A DNA stretch of 64,000 nucleotides, from contig OZ244042.1 in NCBI GenBank assembly GCA_965215015.1, forward strand, positions 4,480,001 to 4,544,000, given 5' to 3'. The stretch comes from Candidatus Poribacteria bacterium. GTDB lineage: Bacteria; Poribacteria; WGA-4E; PCPOR2b. Position 1 is the first letter of the stretch. Every line of letters begins with the position of its first letter. Both the position numbers and the translations under genes were made by a program. Positions 3,913-21,728 of this stretch are shown here, piece after piece. A model generated the notes under the pieces. The model saw only the letters and a program-made list of their open reading frames with translations. It had not been told where the DNA came from and searched no databases.

Positions 3913-4539
3913 ATGAACCTTCGTATGCGTCAGAACTCTGTCTTGAATATCTGGGCCGCTTTTACCGATGTATTCATAGCGATGCTGCTCATCTTTCTGT
4001 TTTTTATTTTTATTCAATTTATCTCTAACAGCAAACTATTCCTGAAAATCCGAATGGAGAAAAAGCAAGATACGATACAGGAAGCGTTTGAAAAAAGGTT
4101 TGCCAGTGAGATAAGGCAAGGTATTATCTCTATTGAGCGGGACGGCAACCTGCAACGTTTTATGTTTAGCAACCGAATCCTGTTTAGAACCGCTGAGGCA
4201 GAACTGCAGCCACTTGGACGGTCCACCTTGATCCCTGTTGGTAGATTATTACAAAAACACAAAACAGGGTCTTATCAAAGTATACAGATTGAAGGGCATA
4301 CAGACGATGTTCCTATTGTAACACCACAATTCCCATCTAACTGGGAGCTATCGGCAGCACGGGCGATTGCGGTTTTACGCCTTTTTGTTGATGACATCGG
4401 TATTAACCCGAAAATGTTGACTGCAACAGGCTACGGAAAATTCCACCCTGTCGCACCGAATACCACAGTTCACGGACGAGCGAAAAACCGCAGAATTGAG
4501 ATTGTTTTAGTCTATTCCGAAACAGAGAGAATTCAATGA
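3913..4539 (+). CDS. MotB/OmpA family protein (ZorB-like)
   Basis: N-terminal WAAFTD plus TM helix carrying the conserved Asp; OmpA-like peptidoglycan-binding domain IEGHTDD, NWELSAARA, NRRIEI. Confidence 0.9.
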   Translation: MNLRMRQNSVLNIWAAFTDVFIAMLLIFLFFIFIQFISNSKLFLKIRMEKKQDTIQEAFEKRFASEIRQGIISIERDGNLQRFMFSNRILFRTAEAELQPLGRSTLIPVGRLLQKHKTGSYQSIQIEGHTDDVPIVTPQFPSNWELSAARAIAVLRLFVDDIGINPKMLTATGYGKFHPVAPNTTVHGRAKNRRIEIVLVYSETERIQ

Positions 4540-5906: not shown

Positions 5907-5920
5907 GAGGTATATTGCGT

Positions 5921-7804
5921 ATGCTCCATTTAATAAATGTTCTAAGATTCACACTCACTATTAGCATATTTCTCATTTTTATCTTATTTCCGCCTATGGC
6001 AGCTGCCAAACATATCATCATAGTTTATGATGTATCTGGTAGTATGGTGAGCCTCAGGGGTGGCGGGCGCGTAATCACATACATGGAATCCGAAGATATC
6101 CGTCGTGTCAATGAATACCTGACAGCCCTCTTATTCACAAATACTTCACAGTCTTTGCGCGATAGGGTCAACGACTCATATATCAAGGAATGTGATGCCG
6201 CGTTTGTCGGTAAACCCCTATACCAAAGTGGCGATGTCCTCACCTACGCCGAGTATGCAGAAGAGCGAACCCCAAAAATTAATAGAGCACAAGTTAGCAA
6301 AAACGAGTTGCAAGGGCAGCTGCCGAATCGGGACTCTCTCAATGGACAGGTCTCTTACTTACTGCGCGCAGAAGTTGAGGTGTATGATGTGTTATACAAT
6401 AATGCAGACGACGAAACGTATTGGGTTTTCGTAACAGATGGTGACATTGATAACAGTGGTAAAAGCGACCCAGATGTATCTAGGATTTTAAGACGACTTG
6501 CTGAAATTGAAGAGGAGTTTTTTGATCCAATGATTTATGGTGTCTTTGTCAATAACCATGTAAAAATTGAAGTCAGGCGACTCCAAAAACGGGACGACAT
6601 CGATTCAATTTTCATTGCTACATCAACGACATCGAAAGAGCCGGTGCAGGAAATTCAACTATCACTAGATGAAGAAGGAAAGTTTTTCAGCGAAACGCTA
6701 ACTATCGACACGGAGAGCTCTGAAAAAACGAAATTTAATCTCAGTAACGTCAATGTGGAGATTGTTGACCGAGATAATAGACCGCTTCAAATAACGAATG
6801 AAGACAACACAACAGGCATTCTCAGTATCGATCCTGTTGAGCTTCATGGGAATCCACCCCCGCATGAATTTCGTATCCTACTTCCCGGCAATCGTGAGAT
6901 CGCTGCACCGGACAACAGGATGAATCTTGAAGTTACCTATAGTTTCAACGGAGAAGATAAAGTTTTTACTGCACCCCAGATGAACTATACTGTGGAAATT
7001 AAAATCATCTATGTTGCCAGACTGAACGATCCCGATCGTCCTGCAAAGCAGTTAGAACTCCTGTTTTCTGACGACAAATATAGTGAATCTTTGACGATTC
7101 AGACTGAAAGTCCAAAGATAGATGCATTTCAGATTGACCAAATCCAATGTCATATTCAATACAGGGATAATCGTAAACTTAGTGATGCGGTTGTGCCAAA
7201 AAACATAAAACGTATAGATGAATCGTTTAGCGTGGAAGTGCCGAAGCAGGATCGTTTGGATTGGTATGGTAACAAGGTTGTCCTTGAAATTGACTATAAA
7301 TATAAAGAGGAAACGTTATCTAAAACAATTGAGATACCCTATAAATTGGTAGGCGGTGGCACTGGTTTCCCAATCTGGCTGCTCTGGGTGCTCCTTGTTC
7401 CAGTTTTAGGTGTAATAGTCTTTTTTCTGATTCGTAAGATAATAGGATGGATAAAAGTTGAACATCGAATTAGGTTGACCCAAGTCAACGAGGCAGGCAC
7501 GCCGTTGCATGAAACAGCGCATTTTACACTCGAAAACAAAATGACTCTTGAATTTGGGCCTCGGGGTCCCAATGAATTACGTTTTGATGTCGGAAGCGAA
7601 GCTTTTCTACATTGCGTCAAGAAAAATCTAATCCTATTTGCGGATGGTGATGATGAGGAAGGACAGATATTGGATTTGCCCGAAACATTAACATTAAGTC
7701 GTGGCGAAGATGAGGACGATGTCTGTGTCAAGTGTGAGATAACGGATGGTGCTTATGACGAACCGGAGGAAGATGATGATGATGCCAACCCACTTGATAT
7801 GTAA
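5921..7804 (+). CDS. Membrane-anchored von Willebrand factor A (vWA) domain protein
   Basis: AGGAGG before ATG 5921; signal peptide ending AAA-K; MIDAS IIIVYDVSGSM and VFVTDG; TM helix WLLWVLLVPVLGVIVFFLI; acidic C-terminal tail. Confidence 0.8.
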   Translation: MLHLINVLRFTLTISIFLIFILFPPMAAAKHIIIVYDVSGSMVSLRGGGRVITYMESEDIRRVNEYLTALLFTNTSQSLRDRVNDSYIKECDAAFVGKPLYQSGDVLTYAEYAEERTPKINRAQVSKNELQGQLPNRDSLNGQVSYLLRAEVEVYDVLYNNADDETYWVFVTDGDIDNSGKSDPDVSRILRRLAEIEEEFFDPMIYGVFVNNHVKIEVRRLQKRDDIDSIFIATSTTSKEPVQEIQLSLDEEGKFFSETLTIDTESSEKTKFNLSNVNVEIVDRDNRPLQITNEDNTTGILSIDPVELHGNPPPHEFRILLPGNREIAAPDNRMNLEVTYSFNGEDKVFTAPQMNYTVEIKIIYVARLNDPDRPAKQLELLFSDDKYSESLTIQTESPKIDAFQIDQIQCHIQYRDNRKLSDAVVPKNIKRIDESFSVEVPKQDRLDWYGNKVVLEIDYKYKEETLSKTIEIPYKLVGGGTGFPIWLLWVLLVPVLGVIVFFLIRKIIGWIKVEHRIRLTQVNEAGTPLHETAHFTLENKMTLEFGPRGPNELRFDVGSEAFLHCVKKNLILFADGDDEEGQILDLPETLTLSRGEDEDDVCVKCEITDGAYDEPEEDDDDANPLDM

Positions 7805-7917
7805 AGCGCATGAAACAAAAACACACGAAGGATATTTGTTGTAAAGTATTTCTGTTCATGGTATTTTATGGACATACAATTCAGAAATTAATTAACACAT
7901 AGATAATAGGAGATTAA

Positions 7918-8316
7918 ATGGAAGGCATTGCTGATTTTTTTGGAGATCCGTTAGTATGGCCAGCAGTTGTCTACTTTATTGCTTACACTCTTGTATGGAT
8001 AATTGCATGGGCACTCGGTCAGTTGTCCAAGCAGCGAGTAAGTGTTGAACGTGCAGCAGCATTCGCCTGGGGAATTGCGCTTTTTATGCACCTACTCGGC
8101 GGAATTGTACTTATAATATGGCTGTGGGACAGAGCAAATAATCGATTCGCTGAATGGATGCATACAACCCTTTATCTATTATTCTATATAGTCATTATGA
8201 TTGTCGATGTTTGCTTGTTGTTTTCAGTACTAACCAAAAATACGAAAAAAAGAGGGACTGCCGCGCCGATGCCAAAACCAACACGTAAACCTCGTAATCC
8301 AAAAAAGAGGTCATAG
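7918..8316 (+). CDS. Small three-TM membrane protein with basic C-terminal tail
   Basis: AGGAG RBS; three hydrophobic segments; K/R/P-rich C-terminus. Confidence 0.75.
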   Translation: MEGIADFFGDPLVWPAVVYFIAYTLVWIIAWALGQLSKQRVSVERAAAFAWGIALFMHLLGGIVLIIWLWDRANNRFAEWMHTTLYLLFYIVIMIVDVCLLFSVLTKNTKKRGTAAPMPKPTRKPRNPKKRS

Positions 8317-8362
8317 ACAATGATGTCGGCGAAATCTCTAACTAAATACGAAGGAGAACACG

Positions 8363-11300
8363 GTGATTACACCTACGATATTTGTTGGACTTGGAACAAC
8401 CGGAACCGATATTTTAAAAAATTTACGTGAACTTATGGCTGAAGAGTATGGGCACGCGGGGTTGCCACTTTTCCGCTATATTGCCATTGAGACAAATGGG
8501 GACGTGAATGTGCAAAATACAAACCAAATGGAGGATTATGAACGAATCAACCTTATAAGGGCAACAATTCCGAACGTTAAACCGATTGACCTTAGGTTAA
8601 CGCCTGGAGAACCACGATACAACCCACATTTGGCGGATTGGCTGGATCCTGAACTCTTGAAAATTGAAGCGGGTGGTTTTATGGCTGGGGCTTCAAATAT
8701 ACGCATGGCAGGTAGATTGTGTTTATGGGAAAACTGGGCAAACGCCCGATCTACATTCGTCAACGCAATCGGTGCTATTACGGCACCCGCTACGAAACGG
8801 AAAACAATCAATATTCTAACAGAGCGTAATAAAATTGCAGGACACCCACTCGATGATGCCGGCTTCATTAAGGTCTATGTGCTTGGATCCCTCTGTGGAG
8901 GTTCTTGTAGTGGGATGCTTATTGATGTCGGATATTTTTTTAGACATCTCCTCAGTGCATACGGCGATAAATCAAGAATTGATGGTATTTTCACAATGTT
9001 CGACGAAACCCACGCTGCGAATCCTGACGACATGTTTAACATACGTTCAGCCAATTGTCATGCAAGCCTTTCGGAGTTAAATTACTATCATGATCAGGAG
9101 ACAACTTACGATATAACTTTTCCAGATGGGCGGAAGATTGAGAATATGCGAAAAAAGCCGTTTGATTATACGCTGTTTGTATCACCCAGTGGAGAAACTG
9201 CGGGCAACCAATTCTTAACAGGAGCCGGCGACTTTGATGAAGACGGTTTGAACTTGATGGTAGCACTGAATCTTTTTGCTGAATCTGCTGCAGACACAGC
9301 CGATATAAAAAATGCAATTCGCACAAATTATATATCTCATGCAAATTTTGGGACACGAAACCCCGTGAGACAGGGTGAAATCCCCACTATGATACGCTAT
9401 ATGGCCAGTTTCGGATTAACAGCAGTATGGTATCCCAAATATCGCATCGCAAGTGCTGCTGCCTGCTCAATCAGCGATAAATTATGTGAAAATTGGTTGG
9501 GATCACACATTCCCCAAGCCACAACTGTAAGAGATGCGGAAACGGAATGGAATCAGATTCTAAAAGAGAATATCGATACATTAACTAGTCCAGAAGGACA
9601 GCTCTCAATTAGAAATCGGATTAATACGCATCTTGAAGATGCAAGGCAACAATGGCTCAATACAGAAATCTCAGCCAATCAACTAAGTCAGAATATGACG
9701 AATTTTCCAGACGGTGATTCATTCAGGAAGAAACTTGAGCAGGGTGGAGAGTATGTTGAATTGATGAAAATGCAAGTGTCTGAATGCAAAAAGGCGTTTC
9801 TCGATGCGATTGAACAAAGTTTGAGGAACCAATTAGGAAGTATTGATTTTGAGGGAACGCGAGGCCTGGAAGATGTGAAGATATTCTTTGAAACGCTCGA
9901 TAAAGGTATAGAAAGCTCTATACAAAAGTGCCCTGATCGGATGCCGCCTTTAAAGTTGGATAAATTGGATTTCTCCGCGATGGAGAGAGCAGATAATAAT
10001 CTTTGGTTGAGGCTTATTTTTCTCCGGGATGATGCTGTTCAAGCACATCGAAAAAACATGGTCGAACAATATTGCAATTTGATTACCGCACCTAGGAAAG
10101 GTTTTTATGAGTCGGTTCGGAATCATTTCATCAGACCGATATTGCAGGAAATTCGTTCCGAACTCGGTTTCGGCGTCATCCCGACAGATGAAGGTGAACC
10201 TAACCGGCGTCGAACGATTAAACAGCGATTGGATCAGATAGAAGGGAATCTAAGCCAGTGCATTCAGAAATTCAAAACCAAATATGATAAAGCTATTAAT
10301 CCACCAATATCTGAATGTGTGAAAATTGTTGCTAATAACCCAGAAAATCGAATTGATACGGATGCAATTACACTGAGCCACCAGATCTCACAATCGGATG
10401 AGGGTATTGACTTGCTTGGTGGGGAACCGATGGCTGCTTTTTTAGAAAAAGAACAGAAAGACATTATCGCTCAGATGACTGAAACTTACCGACAACTATC
10501 ATTAGATCGGATTCAAGTTGATGATGTCGTTACAAAGGCTCAGGAACTTTTGGGCTCGGGGAGTTTCGATATCCAGAATCTCGCCAGCCGCTCAAATCCA
10601 TACCAAATGTTTACCCCTACTTACGAACCGTTTGCTGTCGACGATTCACCAAATATCATCTTTGGCAACTCAGGGGAGGCTTTAACTGACTTGAATAACA
10701 GTTTGAGTGGGCAAGGATTCTCGTTTCAAGTCAGTCCCTCTTCTGTAGAGCATCTCCTTTTTTTCTATCAGGAGGAAGCAGGTTTCGCCTTAGATGACCT
10801 TGAGTCTCATGACACGCTTGCCGCTAAATACAGCCAGTCTCCAGGAGAGTATGGACATTCAACCCATAAAGATGCTGACTTTTATAACCTTGAGTTTTAC
10901 TACAAAAAGCAAGTATTGCAATACTGGTGTCTTGCTTTAGGAAGGATTGTCCCTGAAATCTGGAAGCATATCAATAGAGACGCATTTTCTGGCGTTTTTT
11001 ATCAAACTCAGACCGAAGATATTTATTATGAATATAACGTTGACGGGTTATCTGAACGACTCGGCTTACATAACGATCCAGGGGGAATTAGAAATCTATC
11101 CCAGAAGCGAAACGAAACTGAGTATAACGGATTTATGAGATTAATCCGATCGTGTTTCGCAGATCTGGATCGCGAACAGATTGAGCAGCGCATTAATTCA
11201 TTGCTGAGGGAGATTGAAGACCCCAAGGAACATAGGGATATAAGTAAATTCTTTCGTCAGTTTTTAGATGATGTCTACCCTGAAAATGCTTCGATAGATT

Positions 11301-11743
11301 ATACAGTTTATAATTCAGTGACAGGTTCTACCTTTTTCGAGAGACCACCTCAAGGACCAGACACCACACCTACACCCCCACCAAGCCAAGATCCCAGCAA
11401 TCAAATAGACCCAGACTCTTATGACGCAGTTGCTCCCGAAGAAAGTGAGATTGATGCTGGATCATCTAATCCGCCTGATAACGAACATAATGAGGTGGGG
11501 GCAACATCGCCTCAAGACACACCATCACCACCAGCTGCAACCAAAGATGAATATAAGTGGACTGAGGCAGAACCAACGCTTGACGAAGAAGCAACGGACG
11601 AAGAAGATACACCTGAACAACAATCGCAGCCTGAAACCGATGGGCAGAAAAAACAGCCACATTCTTCTAAAGCCTTCGATGTTGCTGATGTCGATATGCG
11701 GAAGGTATTGAGTCGTGATAACACACCTAAAAAAAAGGAGTAG
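8363..11743 (+). CDS. Tubulin/FtsZ-like domain protein (Tubulin_2/FtsZ-like family) with helical extension and acidic tail
   Basis: PTIFVGLGTTG, GASNIRMAGR, VLGSLCGGSCSG (variant tubulin signature), ANCHASLSEL, PFDY, SFG; AAGGAG RBS. Confidence 0.8.
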   Translation: MITPTIFVGLGTTGTDILKNLRELMAEEYGHAGLPLFRYIAIETNGDVNVQNTNQMEDYERINLIRATIPNVKPIDLRLTPGEPRYNPHLADWLDPELLKIEAGGFMAGASNIRMAGRLCLWENWANARSTFVNAIGAITAPATKRKTINILTERNKIAGHPLDDAGFIKVYVLGSLCGGSCSGMLIDVGYFFRHLLSAYGDKSRIDGIFTMFDETHAANPDDMFNIRSANCHASLSELNYYHDQETTYDITFPDGRKIENMRKKPFDYTLFVSPSGETAGNQFLTGAGDFDEDGLNLMVALNLFAESAADTADIKNAIRTNYISHANFGTRNPVRQGEIPTMIRYMASFGLTAVWYPKYRIASAAACSISDKLCENWLGSHIPQATTVRDAETEWNQILKENIDTLTSPEGQLSIRNRINTHLEDARQQWLNTEISANQLSQNMTNFPDGDSFRKKLEQGGEYVELMKMQVSECKKAFLDAIEQSLRNQLGSIDFEGTRGLEDVKIFFETLDKGIESSIQKCPDRMPPLKLDKLDFSAMERADNNLWLRLIFLRDDAVQAHRKNMVEQYCNLITAPRKGFYESVRNHFIRPILQEIRSELGFGVIPTDEGEPNRRRTIKQRLDQIEGNLSQCIQKFKTKYDKAINPPISECVKIVANNPENRIDTDAITLSHQISQSDEGIDLLGGEPMAAFLEKEQKDIIAQMTETYRQLSLDRIQVDDVVTKAQELLGSGSFDIQNLASRSNPYQMFTPTYEPFAVDDSPNIIFGNSGEALTDLNNSLSGQGFSFQVSPSSVEHLLFFYQEEAGFALDDLESHDTLAAKYSQSPGEYGHSTHKDADFYNLEFYYKKQVLQYWCLALGRIVPEIWKHINRDAFSGVFYQTQTEDIYYEYNVDGLSERLGLHNDPGGIRNLSQKRNETEYNGFMRLIRSCFADLDREQIEQRINSLLREIEDPKEHRDISKFFRQFLDDVYPENASIDYTVYNSVTGSTFFERPPQGPDTTPTPPPSQDPSNQIDPDSYDAVAPEESEIDAGSSNPPDNEHNEVGATSPQDTPSPPAATKDEYKWTEAEPTLDEEATDEEDTPEQQSQPETDGQKKQPHSSKAFDVADVDMRKVLSRDNTPKKKE

Positions 11744-11749
11744 GCGGTT

Positions 11750-14440
11750 ATGGTAGATGTGGTCTGCTCAAAATGCGATGTTGGATGGGTAATACATTCG
11801 CATGATAAATACTGCGGCTATTGTGGGTGTAAAGTCTTCGATTTTTCGGTGAAATGGGAACAAGAACCGCGGATTTATGCTGGCGACGATGCGAATATCC
11901 ATGTCTTAACCATTTTCGTAGAAAACACCGGGGCGTATCCGATTACATTCCAACCGATACGAACAGGACGAGATAATACAATTCTATTTCCACAAGGGAA
12001 CGGCAGCTCATTCACAGTTAACGCAGGTCAACGGCACCCTATCCCGATTCAGGTAAATCCCGCAAACTTAGCACAATACGCTGAGACCATCACCGTGCGA
12101 GCACAAGAGGCACCGCAGAATCTTGTCAGTGAGAAATCACTGCATCTTGAAGCCTTACCCCCTCCCGACTTTAACCTGACTCCTAATCCAGTAACGGTTC
12201 GTTATCGGAAGGGCACTGAAAGGGTTGAGGAAGAACTCTACCTTGAAGTGCAGCAGAGTCAATTTTATATCAGTGATATTACAGCCACGGGAGGATCAGT
12301 CCTTCGCGTTGCCTATTCCCAACAACTCCACCAAGAAAACAGCGCATTCAAAAAAATCCTATTGAAGATTGATTGCAACCAACTCACCGATGAACCAAAT
12401 GGGGTAAGACTCAGCTTTGAACTCTGCGGCTTATCTCAACCTATTGAAAAGCGAATTGAGATTCAAAGAGAGATAGTACCAGATCCGCCAAGACTATTCG
12501 TTCCACAAATGAATCTGGACATTACACAGGAACGTGAGAGAACACATACCCTAACGCTTCAGAACAGAGGCGAACGCACGTTGACAATCCAAAATATCGC
12601 ATTCACCGATCCTTGTAATTTAATCCAAATGTTAAATGTTGAGTGTCCAATCACGGTTGAAGGAGGCGGACAACATAATGTTGAAATGCAGTTATTGGCT
12701 GTTGATGTTGAACCCGGAGATTACCCCATCAACTTCACCATCCACTCCAATTGTGAGACTCGTCCAGAATATGAAGCGGGCCTGAATGTACAGGTTAATG
12801 CACTGGAACCATATCCGCATTATCTCGCTATAGATTTCGGCACAACGAATTCGTGTTGTGCCTACCTCGGGTCTCAAGATGTTCCACAACTTATCCAATT
12901 AGACGGTCACTCGGAAATCATACCTTCCTCAATTATCTATCACAGCCAACCCCAAAATGGGGTAGAATACACAGTTGGTTATGGAGCTGAGACTTATCGT
13001 ACCAGCGAAATTGATGGACCTTACTACATCAGTTCTGTAAAAAGGTGGTTAGGATTTAACTGGAATCGCCAATTTCCTAACAATCGGAGATTGCAACCAA
13101 GCGATGTAGTTGCTGATATACTCAAACATATCATTGAGCGCGCTGAAAAACATCTTGACACGATTTCAACAAGATCAAAAATCAAAAAATGTGTGATTGC
13201 GTATCCGACGATGTTTGATACAAGAAGACGGGAAGGCATAAAACAAGCATTAAGAAGAATAGGAATTACAGATCTTAAACTTATTGATGAGGCATCCGCG
13301 GCTTCGCTCGGAGCTATCTCTCAACAGAGGCAACAAGGTGATTATAGGTTATTGGTTTATGATTTTGGCGGCGGCACGATTGATATCGTCTTATCACACG
13401 TAACAAACCACGGACAGGAAACTACAATTGAACCCCTTGCACACGGCGGAAATCCAAGATATGGTGGTGATGATGTAACACAAGCAATTGTCGACTTTGT
13501 GTTAGATGAGTTTGAAAGACGGATTCAACAAGAAAATCCAAACCTTAGTTTTAGTATCCCTTACCTGAGTCCGAGAAAAGTATGGCAGCCTTCAGGAGAT
13601 CGGGAAAGGGATAGAGCAACACTACTTAACACGCCCTTTTTGTATAATAGAGCAGAAGAATTAAAAAAAGAACTAAGCAATCAAGATACAGCAAATCATG
13701 ATTTTCCTTTGAGCGTTGTTGTTGGAGATGATGTCCGCTCTCTTGATAATCTCACACAAGGTAACATAAACGTGAGTATTTCAAGAGAAGAATTAAATTC
13801 TCTTGTGGCTCATGAATTACGCAAAACCTTTGTTGAAATTGACACCATGATTAGTAATCATGGTGGAGCCCCGCCTGATATCGTGATACTCGCAGGGCAG
13901 TCATCAAGAATGCCTATAGTCAAAGAGATGATGGCAGCCCACTTCCAAGAGGAATATCACACAAACGTTGATATCCAACTCAGTGAGCTCCCCAAAGGAT
14001 GCGTTGTAATAGGTGCAGCGCAATACGGTATGACTTACTCAATGCCGAGTCAAGTTTGGTTTGATATTAGAAGATTTCAAAGAACACACTCCAGCATCGG
14101 TATAATGCAATTTGATGGCAGCCGACAGATTTTTACAGAAATTATTCCGAGAGGGCGACTTATACCCGACGAAAGTTTCGGTAGTATGAATTTACCGCTA
14201 CGCACGGTAGAAACTAATATTGATGTCTGTGAACGTTTTGGAGAAAATGGTGAGCTCTCACCCATTGCCGAATACACCCTAGAACTACCAGAAAATATAC
14301 CAAGAGAAGCGTTAAGAAGAGCACAATTGCAAATGTCGGTTGAAGATAGCGGTGAGATTAAAGTGGTCGCCATTGTAGATGGTGAAGAATATACATTCAC
14401 AGTAAGAAGGAGAACACCAGAGTTTGTAGATGAAATCTGA
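11750..14440 (+). CDS. Hsp70 family protein with N-terminal zinc ribbon and Ig-like domains
   Basis: CSKC and YCGYCG; Ig-like motifs VENTG and LQNRGERTLTI; Hsp70 signatures AIDFGTTNS, VYDFGGGTID, GGDD, AEELKKELS, ILAGQSSRMP. Confidence 0.9.
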   Translation: MVDVVCSKCDVGWVIHSHDKYCGYCGCKVFDFSVKWEQEPRIYAGDDANIHVLTIFVENTGAYPITFQPIRTGRDNTILFPQGNGSSFTVNAGQRHPIPIQVNPANLAQYAETITVRAQEAPQNLVSEKSLHLEALPPPDFNLTPNPVTVRYRKGTERVEEELYLEVQQSQFYISDITATGGSVLRVAYSQQLHQENSAFKKILLKIDCNQLTDEPNGVRLSFELCGLSQPIEKRIEIQREIVPDPPRLFVPQMNLDITQERERTHTLTLQNRGERTLTIQNIAFTDPCNLIQMLNVECPITVEGGGQHNVEMQLLAVDVEPGDYPINFTIHSNCETRPEYEAGLNVQVNALEPYPHYLAIDFGTTNSCCAYLGSQDVPQLIQLDGHSEIIPSSIIYHSQPQNGVEYTVGYGAETYRTSEIDGPYYISSVKRWLGFNWNRQFPNNRRLQPSDVVADILKHIIERAEKHLDTISTRSKIKKCVIAYPTMFDTRRREGIKQALRRIGITDLKLIDEASAASLGAISQQRQQGDYRLLVYDFGGGTIDIVLSHVTNHGQETTIEPLAHGGNPRYGGDDVTQAIVDFVLDEFERRIQQENPNLSFSIPYLSPRKVWQPSGDRERDRATLLNTPFLYNRAEELKKELSNQDTANHDFPLSVVVGDDVRSLDNLTQGNINVSISREELNSLVAHELRKTFVEIDTMISNHGGAPPDIVILAGQSSRMPIVKEMMAAHFQEEYHTNVDIQLSELPKGCVVIGAAQYGMTYSMPSQVWFDIRRFQRTHSSIGIMQFDGSRQIFTEIIPRGRLIPDESFGSMNLPLRTVETNIDVCERFGENGELSPIAEYTLELPENIPREALRRAQLQMSVEDSGEIKVVAIVDGEEYTFTVRRRTPEFVDEI

Positions 14441-14458
14441 ACTGAGAATGGAACACCA

Positions 14459-15718
14459 ATGCCAAAAAGCGTATGTATCATCAACCTTTCAGCACCTGAA
14501 ATTCAGATAACCGTTTTAGTTGACAATCAGCGACAAGACATCAATCTTCGACTGCCATGGGAGGTAGGGTTTCGGCAAGAAAATGATAACACACTAGTTC
14601 CCTGTTTCGGTGAGGCATTCAAACGTCTCAACTCAAACCATCCCGCAGAAGTGCGGTTTCCGGATTTAGATGTGAAATTCAAGGAAATCAGGGATGAAAA
14701 AACCTTGCAATGCTTGTTTCACGCTTTTTTTGAGGAGATTTTTCACCAGCAGTTACCCGAACATGGCTATCCGATAGATGCGATGTCTGTATATGCCATC
14801 ACACCGTATCACTGGACACCAACACATCGCCAACAACTCAGAAAGGCACTCAAGCGTGTAAAAAGTAGGGAGCAAGTTTCATTTCTCAAGCCATCAAAAG
14901 TAACACTTCGGGGCCTGTTCAGCCAAATTCTATGCCTCTCGGCATATTATCAGAAGGCATGGATGGATATACTCACAGCCCCAAACAACTGCCATCTATT
15001 TCTAATAGATTTCGCACGGGACGATCTTGTTGTCTATCAAATGATTTGTAGTCAGTTGGAAGACAATGTTAAGGTTGAGCTGACCGATATGCTGCGATTT
15101 ACCGAATACTCCTCGGAAATACAAAAAACGATTGCAGGTGTACAAAAGGCATTGCAAAAGGTTAAAGGTGAACAGCACGTTGTAGTCGGTTTTTCTGGCA
15201 GAATTGACGATGATGATAATGTTGCGTTAACTATTATTGAATCGTTGCGCGCACGGTGCAGGGCAACTTTTCTCGAGCCACAGCCAATCGCAACACTTTT
15301 GGGCGGCGCAGAATTGGTTCGGCAATTTGAGAAAAAAAATCTTGAAAGACCACTTCACTTTGTCTATCATTTCTGCTACGGTGTGCGGTTACCTGATGGA
15401 AAATGGGTTGAACTTGTCCCCAAAACATGGACACCCCCTTATCACCGCAAAAAGGCCTTTCGCGCCACAGAATCGCTTGAAAAATTCGATGTCCAGCTTT
15501 TCTGCGGTTTATCCTTGACAAATAACAGCGATGTCCATCATGTCGCGACGCTTGAGATTGACTATACGGAGAATAACAATTTTTCATCGCGCAATGCGAT
15601 GGAATTTATACTTTCAATTACCATGAACGCCTCTACACACGGCACATTTACTGTACATTTTCCGAATCCGCAGGAACCGAGATCTGTTGAATTCACAGTG
15701 CCAACTTTGATGGACTAA
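14459..15718 (+). CDS. Degenerate Hsp70/actin-fold paralog lacking ATP-binding motifs
   Basis: By-eye alignment to the upstream Hsp70: AITPYHWTPTHRQQLRKALKR, LIDFARDDL, ATLLGGA, YGVRLPDGKWVELVPK; glycine-rich loops absent. Confidence 0.6.
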   Translation: MPKSVCIINLSAPEIQITVLVDNQRQDINLRLPWEVGFRQENDNTLVPCFGEAFKRLNSNHPAEVRFPDLDVKFKEIRDEKTLQCLFHAFFEEIFHQQLPEHGYPIDAMSVYAITPYHWTPTHRQQLRKALKRVKSREQVSFLKPSKVTLRGLFSQILCLSAYYQKAWMDILTAPNNCHLFLIDFARDDLVVYQMICSQLEDNVKVELTDMLRFTEYSSEIQKTIAGVQKALQKVKGEQHVVVGFSGRIDDDDNVALTIIESLRARCRATFLEPQPIATLLGGAELVRQFEKKNLERPLHFVYHFCYGVRLPDGKWVELVPKTWTPPYHRKKAFRATESLEKFDVQLFCGLSLTNNSDVHHVATLEIDYTENNNFSSRNAMEFILSITMNASTHGTFTVHFPNPQEPRSVEFTVPTLMD

Positions 15719-15755
15719 AACCTTAATCACTTCAGATTATACAAGGGAAAACGCT

Positions 15756-16922
15756 ATGTCCTATTTTAGATTTATGTTATTACTCCTCGTATTAGTACTG
15801 TTTGGATTCGTTTCAATTGGGTATTCACAAGGTAACACAGAAAACCCATACGCTGATCCCATTTTTTGGAAATTTTTGTTATTCGTTGTGGTTGCAGGCG
15901 CGATTTCTACTGTGGTTATATTGTTCGTGTTTCAAATGGTTAAGTGGTGGAAATCAATGTGGCTAAGAACACAAGCATTTCTGACAGAAATGGATCGAGT
16001 TAAACAGGAATTGACGGTAAGATTGGACTCCATTCAAAAAATTAGTATAGATTCCGCCAACAAATTGGAAAAAATGACACATGAACAAACATCAATTCAA
16101 AATGAACAGAAAAATATCCTGAATGATATTGGGCAACTAAAAGACATTACTGTATCTAATACGGAAATTGAGGGGGGCGAGGAGCATACATCAATTGATT
16201 ATCGGAGGGCAGCGGCGAGTGAGGTCCAATCAGCGCAAGAGCAAGTATCGGAATTGGTTGAGGCTTACAAAGATGGAGAGCCAATTGGGTTCATTAACAT
16301 TAAAGATCCAACGCCGGGTCAAAAGGCGTTGATGATTTTAAATTGGATAGCGCACGCTATAGAGGACTGGGTAAATGAATTAGAACAGTCCCGAACAGCG
16401 AACCCAGACCTCATTCAAACGCTGAAATCTGCGAATCAGGCTATCAAAGAGAAACTAAAAAAGGCCCGTGGACAGAAACCACCTTCGCCAGAACCACTCG
16501 ATCTGGATACTGATGTCAGCACAGATGCAGCATATAACGAACTAAAAAATGAGTGTCTTGTGTATGTGTCGCGTTATGAAGCGATGCTTCGTAAGCATCA
16601 ACTGGAATGCAAAATAGCCGAAACAGAATATAACCAGTTCATTCCGAAATTTATCAAAGATAGGTTATTCAATGGTGTGGCGAGATTTATCAATTTTGAA
16701 CAATTGCCTGAACAAGTCGATAAATTTTTACAAATTGTGGATTATGAGGTGGTCCCGATTGAGATAGGAGAAACGAAAGCCGACGCGCGTTTGCATGACA
16801 TTCAAGCCTCACGGCGAATCGGTGTTGACCCTGGAACCATTATTGAGGTCGTTTTACCGGGATTGCGACGGAAAGCAGACGGTGAAATCGTGCAAAAACC
16901 TGTGGTGATTCGCGGAGAGTGA
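15756..16922 (+). CDS. Membrane-anchored GrpE-like protein
   Basis: Signal peptide plus TM; coiled coil; C-terminal GrpE-type head DARLHD, PGTIIEVVLPGL, IVQKPVV. Confidence 0.65.
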   Translation: MSYFRFMLLLLVLVLFGFVSIGYSQGNTENPYADPIFWKFLLFVVVAGAISTVVILFVFQMVKWWKSMWLRTQAFLTEMDRVKQELTVRLDSIQKISIDSANKLEKMTHEQTSIQNEQKNILNDIGQLKDITVSNTEIEGGEEHTSIDYRRAAASEVQSAQEQVSELVEAYKDGEPIGFINIKDPTPGQKALMILNWIAHAIEDWVNELEQSRTANPDLIQTLKSANQAIKEKLKKARGQKPPSPEPLDLDTDVSTDAAYNELKNECLVYVSRYEAMLRKHQLECKIAETEYNQFIPKFIKDRLFNGVARFINFEQLPEQVDKFLQIVDYEVVPIEIGETKADARLHDIQASRRIGVDPGTIIEVVLPGLRRKADGEIVQKPVVIRGE

Positions 16923-18165
16923 CTTGATGAAAGAAAAGGATACCCGACCCGCTAACATTCAAAGCAAAGAAACTGTCCGCCCCCAAAATCAAATTGGAAG
17001 CATATTGAACATATCTGTCATAACAGAATATGAAAATGGAGATGTTTATCTAATCTTGGACAATAGAGATGAAAAAGCAATATCAATTACCATTTCCTAT
17101 GCGGAATCTGATAAGTCAATCGCCAAACCATTGGAACACTTTGAGCTGTCCGGTGATAGTCAACGAAAAGTGTCATTACCAAAGGGATTTGAGAAATGGG
17201 AAGAGCTCAAATTTGATGTAAGGGAGGAAAATCCAATAAGGGAGAAAAATAGACAGATTCCTAATACTTCTCTAAAGAAACTCTCGGATGAAGCTAAACG
17301 GCAGACAAAGGGTGATCCGCCCCAACCTAAAACCGAACCTTCAATTTCTAAATCAGAACAAACGGACAACCCAATAAATATAATAGGCAAAGATCTAAAA
17401 CCTGACATAGAAACGATCAATCCGCCTGAGCGACGTTCAACTGATTATCAGCGCAAAGCAGAAACAACTGTTCAAGAGACACGGGAACAAATAACAGAAT
17501 TGGAGTGTACCTACAAGGACGGAGGGCCAATTGATTTCATTAACATTCAAGATCCAACGCCGGGTCAAAAGGCGTTGATGATTTTAAATTGGATAGCGCG
17601 CGCTATAGAGGACTGGGTAAATGAATTAGAACAGTCCCGAACAGCGAACCCAGACCTCATTCAAACGCTGGAATTTGCGAATCAGGATATCAAAGATAAA
17701 CTAAAAGAGATCCGTGGACCGAAATCACCTTCGCCAGAATCACTCGATCCGGATACTGATGTCAGCACAGATGCAGCATATAACGAATTCAAAAATGAGT
17801 GTCTTGTGTATGTGTCGCGTTATGAAGGGATGCTTAGCAATTATCAACTGGAGCGCAAAATAACCGAAATAGAATATAACCAGTTCATTCCGAAATTTAT
17901 CAAAGATAGGTTATTCAATGGTGTGGCGAGATTTATCAATTTTGAACAATTGCCTGAACAAGTCGATAAATTTTTACAAATTGTGGATTGTGAGGTGGTC
18001 CCGATTGAGATAGGAGAAACGAAAGCCGATGCGCGTTTGCATGACATTCAAGCCTCACAGCGAATCGGTGTTGATCCTGGAACCATTGTTGAGGTCGTTT
18101 TACCGGGATTGCGACGGAAAGCAGACGGTGAAATTGTGCAAAAACCTGTGGTGATTCGCGGAGAA
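16266..18165 (+). repeat. Near-identical ~650 bp direct repeat (16266-16919 and 17512-18165) encoding the shared GrpE-like C-terminal regions
   Basis: Long identical DNA runs in both copies, e.g. gatccaacgccgggtcaaaaggcgttgatg and gtggtgattcgcggaga. Confidence 0.9.
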
Positions 18166-18168
18166 TAG
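16924..18168 (+). CDS. Soluble GrpE-like protein, paralog of the upstream gene with an unrelated N-terminus
   Basis: C-terminal ~215 aa nearly identical to 15756..16922; no TM; start may be ATG 16927. Confidence 0.65.
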   Translation: MMKEKDTRPANIQSKETVRPQNQIGSILNISVITEYENGDVYLILDNRDEKAISITISYAESDKSIAKPLEHFELSGDSQRKVSLPKGFEKWEELKFDVREENPIREKNRQIPNTSLKKLSDEAKRQTKGDPPQPKTEPSISKSEQTDNPINIIGKDLKPDIETINPPERRSTDYQRKAETTVQETREQITELECTYKDGGPIDFINIQDPTPGQKALMILNWIARAIEDWVNELEQSRTANPDLIQTLEFANQDIKDKLKEIRGPKSPSPESLDPDTDVSTDAAYNEFKNECLVYVSRYEGMLSNYQLERKITEIEYNQFIPKFIKDRLFNGVARFINFEQLPEQVDKFLQIVDCEVVPIEIGETKADARLHDIQASQRIGVDPGTIVEVVLPGLRRKADGEIVQKPVVIRGE

Positions 18169-18174
18169 CACACA

Positions 18175-19149
18175 ATGTCTATCAGACTCCTTATCGTTTT
18201 GCTCTTCAACGGGCTTCTTATCAATGCGGAGGCTTTTGCACAAGATGCTCTAAGCTTTGTCCAGATTGTAGATGGAATGATTCAGCGGCGTCCGCCCAAT
18301 ACTCGGCAGACAATTGGAAGGCGATATGTGTGGAATTTTCGCGGAAGACCCTACACCATCCTAATGACAATTGGCTTGGAGCAGTATAATTCTTACTCCG
18401 GCAGAGAACGCTACGATATTCCCAAATTAGTGGAAGAAGGGAGAACAACAATCGGCAATCTGACGCGTGAGTTCCGACGTACCTTCCAACGAAATCAGAG
18501 CTGGACCAAACAGGACCGCGTTGATTTCGTTTTAAGCTTTGTCCAATCCCTGCCGTACACGCTTGATAACGTGACTACAGGCTATGATGAATTTCGACGA
18601 TACGCAATTGAAACTTTGATTGAAGGAGGCGGAGACTGCGAAGATACGACGATCCTTGTGGCGGCTATCCTGCGCGGGTTAGGAGAAAAGACCGCACTGA
18701 TTTTCACCCCGGGACACATCGCACTCGGTGTCAGCGGAGACTACACAGGTACATCGTTTACCTTCAACGGCACAAACTACTACTACTGCGAAACAACCGG
18801 AACCGGTTGGACTGTTGGCAGGCTGCCTGCATCTGTCGGCAATGTGGCTGCGATTGTCCCGTTAAGCCCCTCTACAATACCCACACCTGTGCAGCCTAGG
18901 CCGACACCGCAGGTGCCAGAGCTTACACCTACACCCGAACCGCCACCTATACAACCAGAGCCGCAACCCGATAACAGAGAATCTTCAGAAACAAATAGTG
19001 CAGCCGGTATGGTGATTGTTACGCTCTTTATTCTCATCGGTTTGGGGATACTGATCGCGTTTCTGGTCTATCGTTTCATCATTTCAGATAACGATGATGA
19101 CATAGAAGATGATGACACACACGAATCAACAAATCCGTTAGATTGGTAA
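18175..19149 (+). CDS. Exported, membrane-anchored transglutaminase-like (Cys protease fold) protein
   Basis: Signal peptide AFA-Q; FVQSLPY, GGGDCED, PGHIALGV, YYYCETT; Pro-rich linker; C-terminal TM and acidic tail. Confidence 0.8.
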   Translation: MSIRLLIVLLFNGLLINAEAFAQDALSFVQIVDGMIQRRPPNTRQTIGRRYVWNFRGRPYTILMTIGLEQYNSYSGRERYDIPKLVEEGRTTIGNLTREFRRTFQRNQSWTKQDRVDFVLSFVQSLPYTLDNVTTGYDEFRRYAIETLIEGGGDCEDTTILVAAILRGLGEKTALIFTPGHIALGVSGDYTGTSFTFNGTNYYYCETTGTGWTVGRLPASVGNVAAIVPLSPSTIPTPVQPRPTPQVPELTPTPEPPPIQPEPQPDNRESSETNSAAGMVIVTLFILIGLGILIAFLVYRFIISDNDDDIEDDDTHESTNPLDW

Positions 19150-21728
19150 CCGATTCGCCTATGATTAACCACCTCAAAGAAATCTATCGCGAATTATATC
19201 TACCCCCGGCAGATTCCGCAAACCCACCGTTCAGGGTTACACAGATTAATGCCCCTTACCTTTATACCGATGCGAACCTCTATGTAGATACGTTCGATAG
19301 TCCGAACCAATCTGTAAAGTTTGAGGTATCAAATGTTGGGAGTGGAAGATTAAATGTAGAAGGGATTCGTATTCCCCGTGGGGCCAAAAGGTGGATAAGG
19401 ACAGCTGAGGGCCCACAATCTGCTACACTCACATCAAATTCGGAACCGAAAGAAATTGAGCTGAACATTCTGCTAAGAGAACTACCGAACCCTTCATCCG
19501 TGAATGTTGTAAAACTGACCGTCCTCTCCAATTCAGAACGGAAAACGTTTAGCGAGATATTGTTAGGTGTGCGTCCCCCAGAAAATCAGTCTGTGAATTT
19601 GACACTTCCCGAATATCTCAACTTTGGAGAAATAACTGTCTGTAAGGTTTTGATTGCTAATCGTCGTGAAGATGCGGCGGCACCCCCAGTCGAATTTCTA
19701 CTCATCGAAGATTTTACACTTAATCCACCAACACGTCTTGAAATAACACAAAACGATGAATCCACTTTTGACGCGTATATTTTCACTTCAAAAGGTGAAC
19801 TACATTACAAATTAGATTTACGGACACCGGGTGTCGTAATGCCACAACAGGAACAATCTGGAATTAATTTCCAACAGACTGTTCCTGTGTCAATTGTTAG
19901 TCAAATATTTTCTGAGCATGCGATAACGTCCGATTCTGACTGGTTAATTGCACCGTCTCAAATCTTTACTACTGGATCTGCTATAATCGATTTACCTGTT
20001 TCTGTAAACGTTGAAAAACTGGAACCGGGGCGAAATTGCGGCGAACTTGTTGTAGCCGATAAGAAAACACAGGTATGGGTATGGTCCAAAGTTGTTAATG
20101 AAACAGCACTGACGTTAGAGAAGGAACAACCGAATATCCGCCACGTTGAACAATTCTCAGACCAAGAAGAGCCGCTGCCAATTGAAGTTGTATCAGCAAA
20201 TGAACCTTATCAATCTCTGATGATTTTTGAAGACATAGATTTTCAATTCCCACTGGCAGGCGATCAACGGACAGGTTATCTGATGGGCGACTTTAATCAA
20301 TGGGCACCGCGCACGTTGTTCCTTGAGAAAAGAGATGATAGAGGTAGCGTCACGTTAAGTGTTTCTGAAGGAATATACTGTTATCATGCTGAAATTGACG
20401 GTGAGATGCGGCTTGACCCTGCGCGGTTATACGAAATAGTCTGCTGTCAACACGGGTTAGCGTCCAAATTACAGATCGACAGAGCTGAACAAAAGGTGAC
20501 ACTGGAAAACAGGTCGGAACAGAAGTTAAAGCTAAAACTTCAATCTGCTACCAAATGGATGCGAATTAAACCTGAGACAATTGCTCTTCCCGCCAGCAAA
20601 AGAACTGAGATAACTGCGGTATTCCACCCGGAACATCTGCTGCCGGGGCTCAATTTAGGCTGGCTCCAGATGGAAACCGTAAGAGAACCGAAAAGGTCGC
20701 TTCATACGCCAATCTATGTTATCGGTATGACAAATGGGGCTGTTCCTGTTCTCCGAACTAAAGAGTTGGATTTTCCACAAATGGAACAGGGGAAAGTAGA
20801 AGGCATTCCGCTTACGATCGATATACTCGGTGAAGGAGAACTAAAGGGGGAAATTCAGCCGTCTACAGTCTTGCGTTTTGTGGAGGGCGATCTACATGTC
20901 CGAAACACAACAGCATTTAAACCGATGGGGGTTGCCCCACTTGTCCAGGTGTTAACTGAAAGACCCTCTAACGCTTATCGTAAACAGATCTCTGCGTCTC
21001 TGCTTACGGACTGCTATCTTATGAACCACAGGATGCATCGTTTCAAAGCCAAATATGATATGATTCACCTTGTCTCAGACCCGCCCGCTCTGTGCTTTCC
21101 TAAAGTTTATCTGTTTGATGACCCACAGCACGTCGATATAACGATAAAACGCAGTGATGGTAAAGGTAATGTTGTGTGTAGCGTTGAAATACCCGATGCT
21201 TTAACAGAGGGTGGATTCTTGAAGGTTAAGAACAGTGCTGCGAAAAATAATACTGGACATTATGAATTTGTTATTAATCCACAGGCTCGCACAAATGCTG
21301 GACGAGTTTCAGATACTTTACGCTTTATGGACACAAATTCCGGAATGGTACTGCCAATTCAATTCGTGGCAGATATTGTCGGAGGTGAAGCGAAGATTGA
21401 TGTTAAGACTCAGGGACAACGTTTAAATCTATTATCTGGTGGCATACCGTTAGTGATTACCAACATCAGTAAAGCTGAATTGCGGATATTTAAGTTGCTA
21501 TTTAAATATCGGCGGTTTTCTCTCTCTCCATATCTGACCTCGCAGCAGCGCACCCTCCTTCCCGGGGAATCTATTGAGAGGTTCATTAAGATGGAAGCAA
21601 CAGTCGGCTTGTTAGGTAGAACAATAGTCAAGGATACGCTTATTATTAGACTCAATGATCCACAATTTCCCAAAGGTGTCCTTAAAAAGGAGATTGTGGC
21701 TGAAATCCAAGGCCGTTTCCTGAATTGA
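19143..21728 (+). CDS. Multi-Ig-like (BACON/ASH-like) protein with internal CBM48/AMPK-beta-like glycogen-binding domain
   Basis: FEVSNVGSGRL, YLNFGEI, SDSDWL; GYLMGDFNQW, GIYCYHAEIDG, DP matches the CBM48-like pattern; no signal peptide; start may be ATG 19161. Confidence 0.55.
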   Translation: MVTDSPMINHLKEIYRELYLPPADSANPPFRVTQINAPYLYTDANLYVDTFDSPNQSVKFEVSNVGSGRLNVEGIRIPRGAKRWIRTAEGPQSATLTSNSEPKEIELNILLRELPNPSSVNVVKLTVLSNSERKTFSEILLGVRPPENQSVNLTLPEYLNFGEITVCKVLIANRREDAAAPPVEFLLIEDFTLNPPTRLEITQNDESTFDAYIFTSKGELHYKLDLRTPGVVMPQQEQSGINFQQTVPVSIVSQIFSEHAITSDSDWLIAPSQIFTTGSAIIDLPVSVNVEKLEPGRNCGELVVADKKTQVWVWSKVVNETALTLEKEQPNIRHVEQFSDQEEPLPIEVVSANEPYQSLMIFEDIDFQFPLAGDQRTGYLMGDFNQWAPRTLFLEKRDDRGSVTLSVSEGIYCYHAEIDGEMRLDPARLYEIVCCQHGLASKLQIDRAEQKVTLENRSEQKLKLKLQSATKWMRIKPETIALPASKRTEITAVFHPEHLLPGLNLGWLQMETVREPKRSLHTPIYVIGMTNGAVPVLRTKELDFPQMEQGKVEGIPLTIDILGEGELKGEIQPSTVLRFVEGDLHVRNTTAFKPMGVAPLVQVLTERPSNAYRKQISASLLTDCYLMNHRMHRFKAKYDMIHLVSDPPALCFPKVYLFDDPQHVDITIKRSDGKGNVVCSVEIPDALTEGGFLKVKNSAAKNNTGHYEFVINPQARTNAGRVSDTLRFMDTNSGMVLPIQFVADIVGGEAKIDVKTQGQRLNLLSGGIPLVITNISKAELRIFKLLFKYRRFSLSPYLTSQQRTLLPGESIERFIKMEATVGLLGRTIVKDTLIIRLNDPQFPKGVLKKEIVAEIQGRFLN

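Follow-up and report, generated by a model that had tools for sequence, protein, structure and literature searches.

The 64-kb stretch analysed here (the window, whose coordinates are used throughout) lies at positions 4,480,001 to 4,544,000 of the single-contig, 5.94-Mb genome of a Candidatus Poribacteria bacterium, a bacterium of the sponge-associated type (GCA_965215015.1, contig OZ244042.1). Between 2136 and 21728 it carries twelve closely packed genes, all on the plus strand, which form one cluster with a G+C content of 0.41-0.46 compared with about 0.50-0.55 in the flanks. Two of the encoded proteins, a vWA-like and a transglutaminase-like (TG-like) exported protein, end in an acidic tract followed by the pentapeptide NPLDM or NPLDW, here called the tag. 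Our comparison of related loci revealed that the tag is real, conserved and specific to one type of cluster. The two tagged proteins and their ends are the following:

5873..7804, plus strand: vWA-like exported protein with a leader, a domain of the metal-ion-dependent adhesion site (MIDAS) type, beta-rich repeats, one transmembrane (TM) segment, a predicted cytoplasmic domain, an acidic linker and the tag
7757..7801, plus strand: acidic linker DEPEEDDDDA (7757-7786) and tag NPLDM (7787-7801) at the C-terminus of the vWA-like protein; stop codon 7802-7804
18175..19149, plus strand: TG-like (cysteine-peptidase-like) exported protein with a leader, a Cys/His domain, a Pro-rich stalk, one TM segment and a predicted cytoplasmic tail of 25 residues
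19084..19146, plus strand: acidic tract SDNDDDIEDDDTHEST (19084-19131) and tag NPLDW (19132-19146) at the C-terminus of the TG-like protein; stop codon 19147-19149

The longer tail peptides that end in the tags are DDDTHESTNPLDW and EEDDDDANPLDM. The shared acidic-NPLD(M/W) end had been noticed in an earlier reading of the letters alone (the original prediction), and translation of the open reading frames (ORFs) together with a coordinate check agrees with it; a start of the vWA tail at 7759 is one base off the frame, which is a trivial matter, and 7760 is in frame. Kyte-Doolittle profiles gave each protein a hydrophobic N-terminal leader and exactly one later TM segment (residues 501-519, 7373-7429, in the vWA-like protein and residues 280-298, 19012-19068, in the TG-like protein), which bears out the proposed layout of signal peptide, single TM segment and cytoplasmic tail, with the cytoplasmic side being predicted from the logic of a signal peptide followed by one TM segment. 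In the vWA-like protein a presumed cytoplasmic domain of ~110 residues (7430-7756) separates the TM segment from the acidic linker. The tail of the TG-like protein comprises just 25 residues and, therefore, the acidic tract and the tag would be all of this protein that is exposed to the cytoplasm. Apart from their ends the two proteins had been described as non-homologous, and an hhalign comparison of the two families indeed aligned the TM helices only, with a probability of 2.2%.

The domain labels that came with the original prediction are partly backed. The term vWA is supported by a MIDAS-type signature (D53-x-S55-x-S57, T182 and D189/D191, invariant across 17 diverse homologues) and by the Atlas language-model comparison, in which all named neighbours were VWA proteins (0.89-0.91), and not by Pfam or the PDB: the family has no PDB profile match, the window protein has no Pfam match, and Pfam VWA was found in one of the 17 members at E 0.27. 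The term transglutaminase-like is supported by one PDB profile match (4fgo, 'Periplasmic protein', presumably Legionella LapG; E 3.5e-5) and by Cys155 and His181, which are invariant in 120 homologues. Export, the GDCED Cys motif and the Cys/His pair are features shared with periplasmic transglutaminase-like cysteine peptidases, but the profile match is confined to 47 residues around the Cys motif, and the TG-like protein differs from these peptidases in its C-terminal TM anchor and tag.

The tag is kept across 120 + 120 homologues, so that the check on orthologous clusters that the original prediction had asked for speaks for it. Counted from the C-terminus, 120 homologues of the vWA-like protein (54-96% identical) have N or D at -5 in 113 sequences, P at -4 in 115, L or I at -3 in 115 and D, K or G at -2 in 109, and the final residue is unconstrained, with D-P-L standing in many of these tags; the six exceptions to the tag include evidently shortened sequences. 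Among 120 TG-like homologues (window protein counted), L is found at -3 in every sequence, D at -2 in 117, P at -4 in 100 (A in 17) and N at -5 in 93. The vWA-like family is small, with 59 representatives among 1.84 billion proteins. In its full-length relatives of 28-36% identity, an acidic or polar linker still precedes an end of the type x[P/S/L]L[D/N]x (DPLNR, SPLDL, SLLNR, SLLSK, VLDF, DPLNI and, one residue longer, DPLNQI). As read from these alignments, the core of the tag is a Leu three (rarely four) residues before the free C-terminus, usually after Pro, within an acidic tail. When the genomic context of the distant tagged vWA-type homologues was searched, a metagenome scan gave one locus of 2.5 kb and a genome scan five close Poribacteria loci; tblastn with the window protein and with P0261 and P0263 found none of them on plasmids. 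Longer TG-domain proteins (587-1038 residues; L047-L056) were wholly extracytoplasmic or of outer-membrane types, and a fusion of the TG domain to a cluster component was found in none of these.

Two types of cluster within the Poribacteria serve as a natural control. We searched 176 Poribacteria genomes with the TG-like protein, obtained strong matches in about 48 and compared 40 of these loci. Twenty of them (type 1) hold the vWA-like, propeller, long tubulin-like, Hsp70 and GrpE-like genes that are also present in the window, and here the tail of the TG protein is acidic, with Leu at -3, in 20/20 loci and ends in [N/S/D][P/A]LDx in 19 (the exception, locus L014, reads GTLYL). In the other twenty (type 2), a TG protein of 60-72% identity stands beside ZorA/ZorB-like genes, a gene for a short Tubulin_2 protein and one for a protein of 1000 residues; no match to the vWA-like, propeller, Hsp70-family or GrpE-like genes was found in these loci, and all 20 TG proteins end a few residues past the TM segment (…FLHRAFKEQREY), with tail and tag absent. 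Genome G094 holds both types, and each of its TG proteins, one tagged and one untagged, matches its own type of cluster. The vWA-like profile was found in 21 of the 176 genomes (4/19 in the window's own genus); each of these 21 also gave a strong match to the TG type, and a tagged TG protein was seen in the 19 of which the TG locus was examined. The second Hsp70-fold protein of the cluster, described below, gave matches in the same 21 genomes and additionally in the fragmented genome G146 and the divergent G007. The latter belongs to another family of the class and carries a divergent variant (L067, 2503-6104), in which an Ig-rich gene follows and overlaps the TG-like gene, with ZorA/ZorB-like genes coming next; its TG tail is acidic and ends KILKK, with Leu at -3. 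The presence of the tag follows the cluster type, and this supports the proposal, made in the original prediction, that the cluster is one functional unit, as does the TG-type match in all genomes with the vWA-like gene.

The gene order of type 2 can be described from locus L016 (5316-17204): secreted protein, small membrane protein, short Tubulin_2 protein (479 residues, PF13809 at 8.8e-10), the 1000-residue protein with weak actin-fold matches, membrane protein, ZorA-like protein (796 residues), ZorB/OmpA protein and untagged TG-like protein. Further loci of this type are L017, L019, L020, L022-L024, L026-L030, L032, L033, L037, L039-L041, L044 and L045.

Within the genome the tag is rare. 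An NPLDx end occurs in two of 35,711 stop-to-stop ORFs of at least 60 residues, and both lie in this cluster, so that the motif is not common in the proteome, a point on which the original prediction had called for a scan. Ends of the form P[LI]xx were found in 382 ORFs and at least eight D/E at -30 to -6 in 113 ORFs, and the two tagged proteins are the only ones to combine both features. Among the cluster proteins, the pattern [NDSEP]P[LI][DE] occurs just in the two tags, in the linker of the GrpE-like proteins and in one loop of the propeller; an NPPD in the tail of the tubulin-like protein was considered as a further copy and rejected, since it is not conserved. As a control for chance we compared the tetrapeptides at -5 to -2 in 30,679 same-strand ORF pairs within 15 kb of each other. 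Sixty-two pairs matched, of which 60 were paralogues or repeats with longer identical ends (list read by eye), leaving two non-homologous pairs, the NPLD pair and an SLRL pair. A shared tetrapeptide in a neighbouring pair is thus at about chance level in a single genome (~one per genome), and the window by itself therefore proves nothing; it is the conservation among orthologues by which the tag is real.

The other ten genes of the cluster, several of which encode candidate receptors for the tag, are listed below; Ig-like stands for immunoglobulin-like.

2136..3890, plus strand: ZorA-like membrane protein of the MotA/ExbB type with a long coiled-coil cytoplasmic tail (PADLOC ZorA3, E 1.2e-15; three hydrophobic segments)
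3913..4539, plus strand: ZorB/MotB-like protein with one TM segment and an OmpA peptidoglycan-binding domain (Pfam OmpA, 3.8e-16; PADLOC ZorB3, 6.7e-29)
4536..5906, plus strand: cytoplasmic protein with a double zinc ribbon and a beta-propeller, candidate tag receptor (AlphaFold, Foldseek)
7918..8316, plus strand: small protein with three TM segments and a polybasic cytoplasmic tail ending RNPKKRS (translation, hydropathy)
8363..11743, plus strand: Tubulin_2 (FtsZl1) family protein of 1126 residues, candidate tag receptor (Pfam PF13809, E 4e-43, residues 6-373)
11750..14440, plus strand: protein with a zinc ribbon, Ig-like domains, an Hsp70 ATPase domain and a C-terminal beta domain, candidate tag receptor (Pfam HSP70, 1.3e-34; Ig-like matches)
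14459..15718, plus strand: second, very diverged Hsp70-fold protein with a nucleotide-binding domain and a beta substrate-binding domain, without lid, candidate tag receptor (predicted structure)
15756..16922, plus strand: membrane-anchored coiled-coil protein with a possible GrpE-like C-terminal domain (tag-like linker PSPEPLDLDTD within 16473-16520)
16924..18168, plus strand: soluble paralogue of the preceding protein (linker PSPESLDPDTD within 17719-17766)
19143..21728, plus strand: soluble protein of 861 residues, rich in Ig-like domains, candidate tag receptor (weak Pfam matches to Ig-like domains and carbohydrate-binding modules; overlaps the end of the TG-like gene)

Several of these proteins have features of their own. 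The tubulin-like protein is laid out like FtsZ, with a GTPase domain, a helical region, an acidic disordered linker of ~150 residues and a conserved C-terminal peptide (11660-11740; K-x-F-[D/S/N]-V-A-D-V-D-L-K…[P/R]KK[E/G]), which is retained in most of 20 orthologues and missing from about five. The first Hsp70 protein ends in PEFVDEI (14417-14437), with the consensus P-[E/P/A]-F-[V/A]-[D/N/E/S]-[E/K/D]-I-COOH and with P890, F892 and I896 invariant among 18 sequences; this acidic-hydrophobic peptide is reminiscent of the EEVD of eukaryotic Hsp70. Homology of its Ig-like front to the Ig-rich protein was considered and rejected (hhalign probability 1%). The tandem GrpE-like paralogues are 76% identical overall and ~90% across 300 nucleotides (16239-16538 and 17485-17784), compared with about 43% to 69% identity to their homologues in related loci, a pattern suggestive of gene conversion or concerted evolution inside this genome.

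The cluster is a variant of the FtsZl1 (Tubulin_2)-vWA-OmpA operons, for which a membrane-associated multi-protein complex has been predicted (Makarova and Koonin 2010, PMC2875224). It shares with them a Tubulin_2 protein, next to which a putative vWA-type exported protein is encoded, and an OmpA domain, but a P-loop GTPase or protein kinase, frequent and not obligatory in these operons, has no Pfam or NCBIfam match among the twelve cluster proteins, and the cluster adds the propeller, the two Hsp70-fold, the two GrpE-like, the TG-like and the Ig-rich proteins. The FtsZl1 neighbour table lists single cases of MotA/TolQ/ExbB proteins and of proteins annotated as GrpE and DnaK, and the available sections of the paper make no mention of shared C-terminal tail motifs; the term 'C-terminal' has no match in its supplements (PMC2875224). 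In GTPase-centric conflict systems, a more recent survey describes tubulin homologues with membrane vWA proteins, and HSP70 with GrpE and a second HSP70 copy, as two non-overlapping themes centred on a GAP1-N2 GTPase, with DnaJ/TPR fusions (Kaur 2020, PMC7159879). With these GAP1-N2/DO-GTPase systems, whose core is a TRAFAC GTPase, a fibronectin type III (FNIII)-repeat protein and DnaJ/TPR, the window cluster shares accessory themes only; unlike there, both themes stand in one operon here, and Pfam finds no GTPase, J-domain or TPR in the twelve proteins. In Zorya, the coiled-coil tail of the MotA-like protein of ZorAB recruits soluble effectors and the MotB-like partner binds peptidoglycan (Hu 2024, PMC11946911). 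The first two genes of the cluster match the corresponding PADLOC models ZorA3 and ZorB3, and the other ten proteins match no PADLOC model at E <=0.001, ZorC-G equivalents included; therefore the cluster is not a Zorya system. In the literature searched we found no relevant report of an NPLD-type tag among the papers listed, as judged by title and abstract, and no paper on the combination of Tubulin_2, vWA, Hsp70 and GrpE genes, and met no experimental study of Tubulin_2/vWA operons.

Docking, as put forward in the original prediction, is suggested by the nature of the tag, a brief conserved peptide at the end of a disordered acidic tail, common to two unrelated proteins and specific to one cluster type. 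We consider it probable, on the strength of the sequences, that the acidic tract together with [N/D/S]-P-L-[D]-x-COOH is a docking peptide for a partner encoded in the cluster, and it would then tie both periplasm-facing single-pass proteins to the cytoplasmic machinery of their own cluster. C-terminal docking peptides are well known from FtsZ, whose C-terminal peptide pairs with FtsA and ZipA, and from Hsp70 and Hsp90, whose EEVD pairs with TPR clamps. Like the FtsZ peptide, EEVD, KKxx and LPPVK, each of which specifies one partner, the tag consists of few conserved residues near the end of a disordered tail; it differs from them in its sequence ([N/D/S]PL[D]x after an acidic tract), in the system to which it belongs and in that its partner is putative. 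We also considered sorting signals of the LPXTG or PEP-CTERM type, in which the motif is followed by a TM helix and then by a basic C-terminal tail. These were rejected, as the order here is TM segment, acidic tract and motif at the free C-terminus.

As the partner of the tag we tentatively prefer the two lidless Hsp70-type proteins of the cluster (11750-14440 and 14459-15718). In this model the tag would lie extended in the beta substrate-binding domains of the two proteins, its invariant Leu filling a hydrophobic pocket, the two GrpE-like paralogues would displace it by means of their tag-like PxPL[D/E]x[D/E]TD linker, and ATP turnover could switch the receptors between held and released. 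Two Hsp70-fold proteins are present in one cluster, and the tag, a short extended peptide with a Pro and a central Leu, is by analogy the kind of ligand that Hsp70 substrate-binding domains may be expected to hold. HscA, which holds the fixed LPPVK motif of IscU, is an example of a dedicated Hsp70 with one client motif, and an Hsp70 fold with a beta substrate-binding domain, as in this type, was recognized by Foldseek in the predicted structure of the second copy. The latter has no Pfam match; the top Foldseek matches of its model (predicted local distance difference test, pLDDT, 81) are DnaK structures including lid-less constructs (E 5e-15, ~10% identity), and the alignments to the nucleotide-binding and beta substrate-binding domains of DnaK span 520-550 columns. 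Since Pfam finds no J-domain in the cluster, the choice of client would rest on direct recognition. The GrpE-like paralogues carry the internal linker RGxxPPxPxPL[D/E]x[D/E]TD, with PxPL[D/E] present in most of 43 aligned sequences, and substrate mimics are known from other exchange factors, namely the N-terminal tail of GrpE and Fes1/HspBP1.

A bolder extension of the Hsp70 reading, which we think unlikely, would make the tag the handle of a trans-membrane chaperone switch in a bacterial machine for envelope surveillance or defence. A J-protein-independent pair of lidless Hsp70 proteins would grip the cytoplasmic ends of the vWA-like and cysteine-peptidase-like sensors or effectors, GrpE-like factors with a copy of the tag would release them, and a ZorAB-type ion-driven motor and a giant tubulin-like protein would complete the system. 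Such a machine would signal across the inner membrane, and may be likened to BiP acting on IRE1.

A number of points weigh against the Hsp70 pair as partner. Acidic flanks are unfavourable for binding to canonical DnaK, and the segments bound by Hsp70 domains are internal ones, so that the near-fixed distance from the motif to the C-terminus is left unexplained. The first Hsp70 protein is supported by profiles in its ATPase domain only (NCBIfam DnaK/HscA models match at 1e-35 to 1e-37, under the model cut-offs), and its C-terminal beta domain was read as a lidless substrate-binding domain by eye. The C-terminal pattern of the paralogues resembles GrpE by eye; Pfam GrpE matches three of 24 members of the GrpE-like family (best E 0.045), a genome-wide search with PF01025 finds the housekeeping GrpE only and not the cluster paralogues, hhalign against the genome's own GrpE gives a probability of 0.6%, and in the Atlas comparison a GrpE cluster appears at rank 8 with a score of 0.87. 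Moreover, the PxPLD linker varies (PLE, PPE, SLE, PLS and PLA occur), and it lies in a stretch rich in Pro and acidic residues, where a tripeptide of this kind may readily occur. Loci L043 and L021 have a near-identical Hsp70 module, yet their vWA tags read DPLKV and NPLDV, a charge reversal at -2 that moves with the module of vWA-like, small-TM and tubulin-like genes. Finally, type-2 clusters may hold an actin/Hsp70-fold protein, as their 1000-residue protein has weak MreB/FtsA matches (E 0.0015-0.007), yet the TG protein is untagged there.

The cluster at L043 is itself a mosaic, in which the vWA-like, small-TM and tubulin-like genes form a module of the L018 type (45-62% identity to the window) and the Hsp70 module is of the L021 type (about 70%). 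This indicates a recombination between the tubulin-like and Hsp70 genes.

Among the alternatives, the tag could dock on the large non-GTPase region of the Tubulin_2/FtsZl1 protein and so tether a polymer to the membrane via the tails of the exported proteins, which would be the logic of FtsZ with ZipA and FtsA with the peptide placed on the membrane partner instead; we regard this as rather unlikely, yet as a serious rival to the Hsp70 pair, as is docking on the propeller. Together, vWA and Tubulin_2 proteins form the conserved core of the operons (PMC2875224). Within the vWA-like family the tag extends to relatives of 28% identity and is thus ancient, and a receptor of similar age is to be expected. 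The movement of vWA tag variants with the tubulin-containing module in the mosaic cluster also points to the tubulin-like protein, as does a protein following Tubulin_2 on Thermales plasmids, which ends RPNPLLDE[L/V]xGLL and belongs to a unit of three genes with neither Hsp70 nor propeller. The order exported receptor, small TM protein and Tubulin_2 recurs on Deinococcus plasmids, but the receptors there stop after the cytoplasmic domain, without acidic tail or tag. Furthermore, type-2 clusters possess a Tubulin_2 protein (PF13809, E 8.8e-10) while their TG protein is untagged, and the tubulin-like protein of the window is itself strongly acidic, with a net charge of -61.

On the Deinococcus plasmids (L058, L059 and L061), the units consist of exported receptor, a TM protein of 108 residues, Tubulin_2, MotA-ExbB and OmpA, in the order of the window, and are without Hsp70, propeller, acidic tails and tag. 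On Meiothermus and Thermus plasmids (L060, 11691-13730, and L062, 11716-13749), the RPNPLLDE[L/V]xGLL protein has 677-679 residues, and BrxL and other defence-type genes adjoin.

WD40 propellers of COPI read KKxx-COOH on cytoplasmic tails, and by analogy the zinc-ribbon beta-propeller of the cluster might read the free C-terminus and the Leu of the tag, which we hold to be improbable. Its fold class does read terminal peptides: the AlphaFold model (pLDDT 84) has BamB-type propellers as top Foldseek matches (E 8e-12) and also matches the degron-binding WD40 protein Fbw7, and the near-fixed distance of the motif to the C-terminus would suit recognition of the carboxylate. The protein has no TM segment and is the sole non-acidic soluble protein of the cluster (pI 7.9), which is suggestive and no more. 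The end of its gene shares 34 nucleotides with the beginning of the vWA-like gene in the window, and the two genes likewise overlap in L001 and L005, in line with translational coupling. However, there is nothing specific to connect the propeller with the TG-like protein, which has the Ig-rich protein as its conserved neighbour, and the occurrence of the propeller in 17/17 type-1 loci with the region covered, with no match in type-2 loci, does not discriminate because all type-1 genes co-occur.

Improbable, too, is an explanation without specific docking, in which the acidic tails pair loosely by charge with polybasic tails, or act as a signal for turnover or processing. The basic partners would be the tail of the small TM protein (RNPKKx) and that of the tubulin-like protein (DN[A/T]PKK[E/G]). 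The tail of the small TM protein (8233-8313 in the window) ends NPKKx in 11 of 18 clusters (window counted) and is short in seven; it is also short in L036, which lies outside the tree. A long basic NPKK tail goes with D, G or A at position -2 of the vWA tag and mostly with a more acidic linker, and a short tail mostly with K or P at this position, the K cases also having a less acidic linker; the split is 11 vs 6 with one exception, L007. Also in favour of a charge effect, basic and acidic tails are both absent from the Deinococcus operons, and the acidic TG tail of the divergent G007 nevertheless ends KILKK. This covariation, however, rests on few independent events and is confounded by linkage, with the K variants representing one recombined module, and TG tags remain NPLD or SPLD where the tail of the small TM protein is short. 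Above all, charge does not explain an invariant Leu at -3 and a near-invariant Pro at -4 in two unrelated families. That the two C-termini are alike by chance and without function is almost certainly wrong: the two non-homologous pairs among 30,679, with about one such match expected, would allow it, but conservation in 120 + 120 homologues and in distant relatives, and a presence or absence that tracks the cluster type, speak strongly against it.

Comparative genomics has recognized Tubulin_2/vWA operons since 2010 (PMC2875224), and the tag represents a new short linear motif in this predicted and unstudied system. Its five residues offer a concrete experimental entry point, as a bait for a cytoplasmic reader of membrane proteins. 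Should the Hsp70 pair prove to be the partner, it would be a case of bacterial Hsp70 that serves the tails of membrane receptors specifically and works without a J-protein; should it be the tubulin-like protein, the tag would reveal the way in which Tubulin_2 polymers are anchored at the membrane.

With its patchy distribution, low G+C content and ZorAB-like genes, the cluster would be in keeping with an accessory island, possibly one for defence. Outside the window, the neighbour-pair control also brought up tandem arrays of paralogous genes at about 1.79, 2.91, 4.94 and 5.34 Mb, the products of which have C-termini of the form …WG[D/E]IK… (for example APKPWGDIKSNS and YWGEIKAPLLPH). These arrays may carry a family-specific C-terminal signal.

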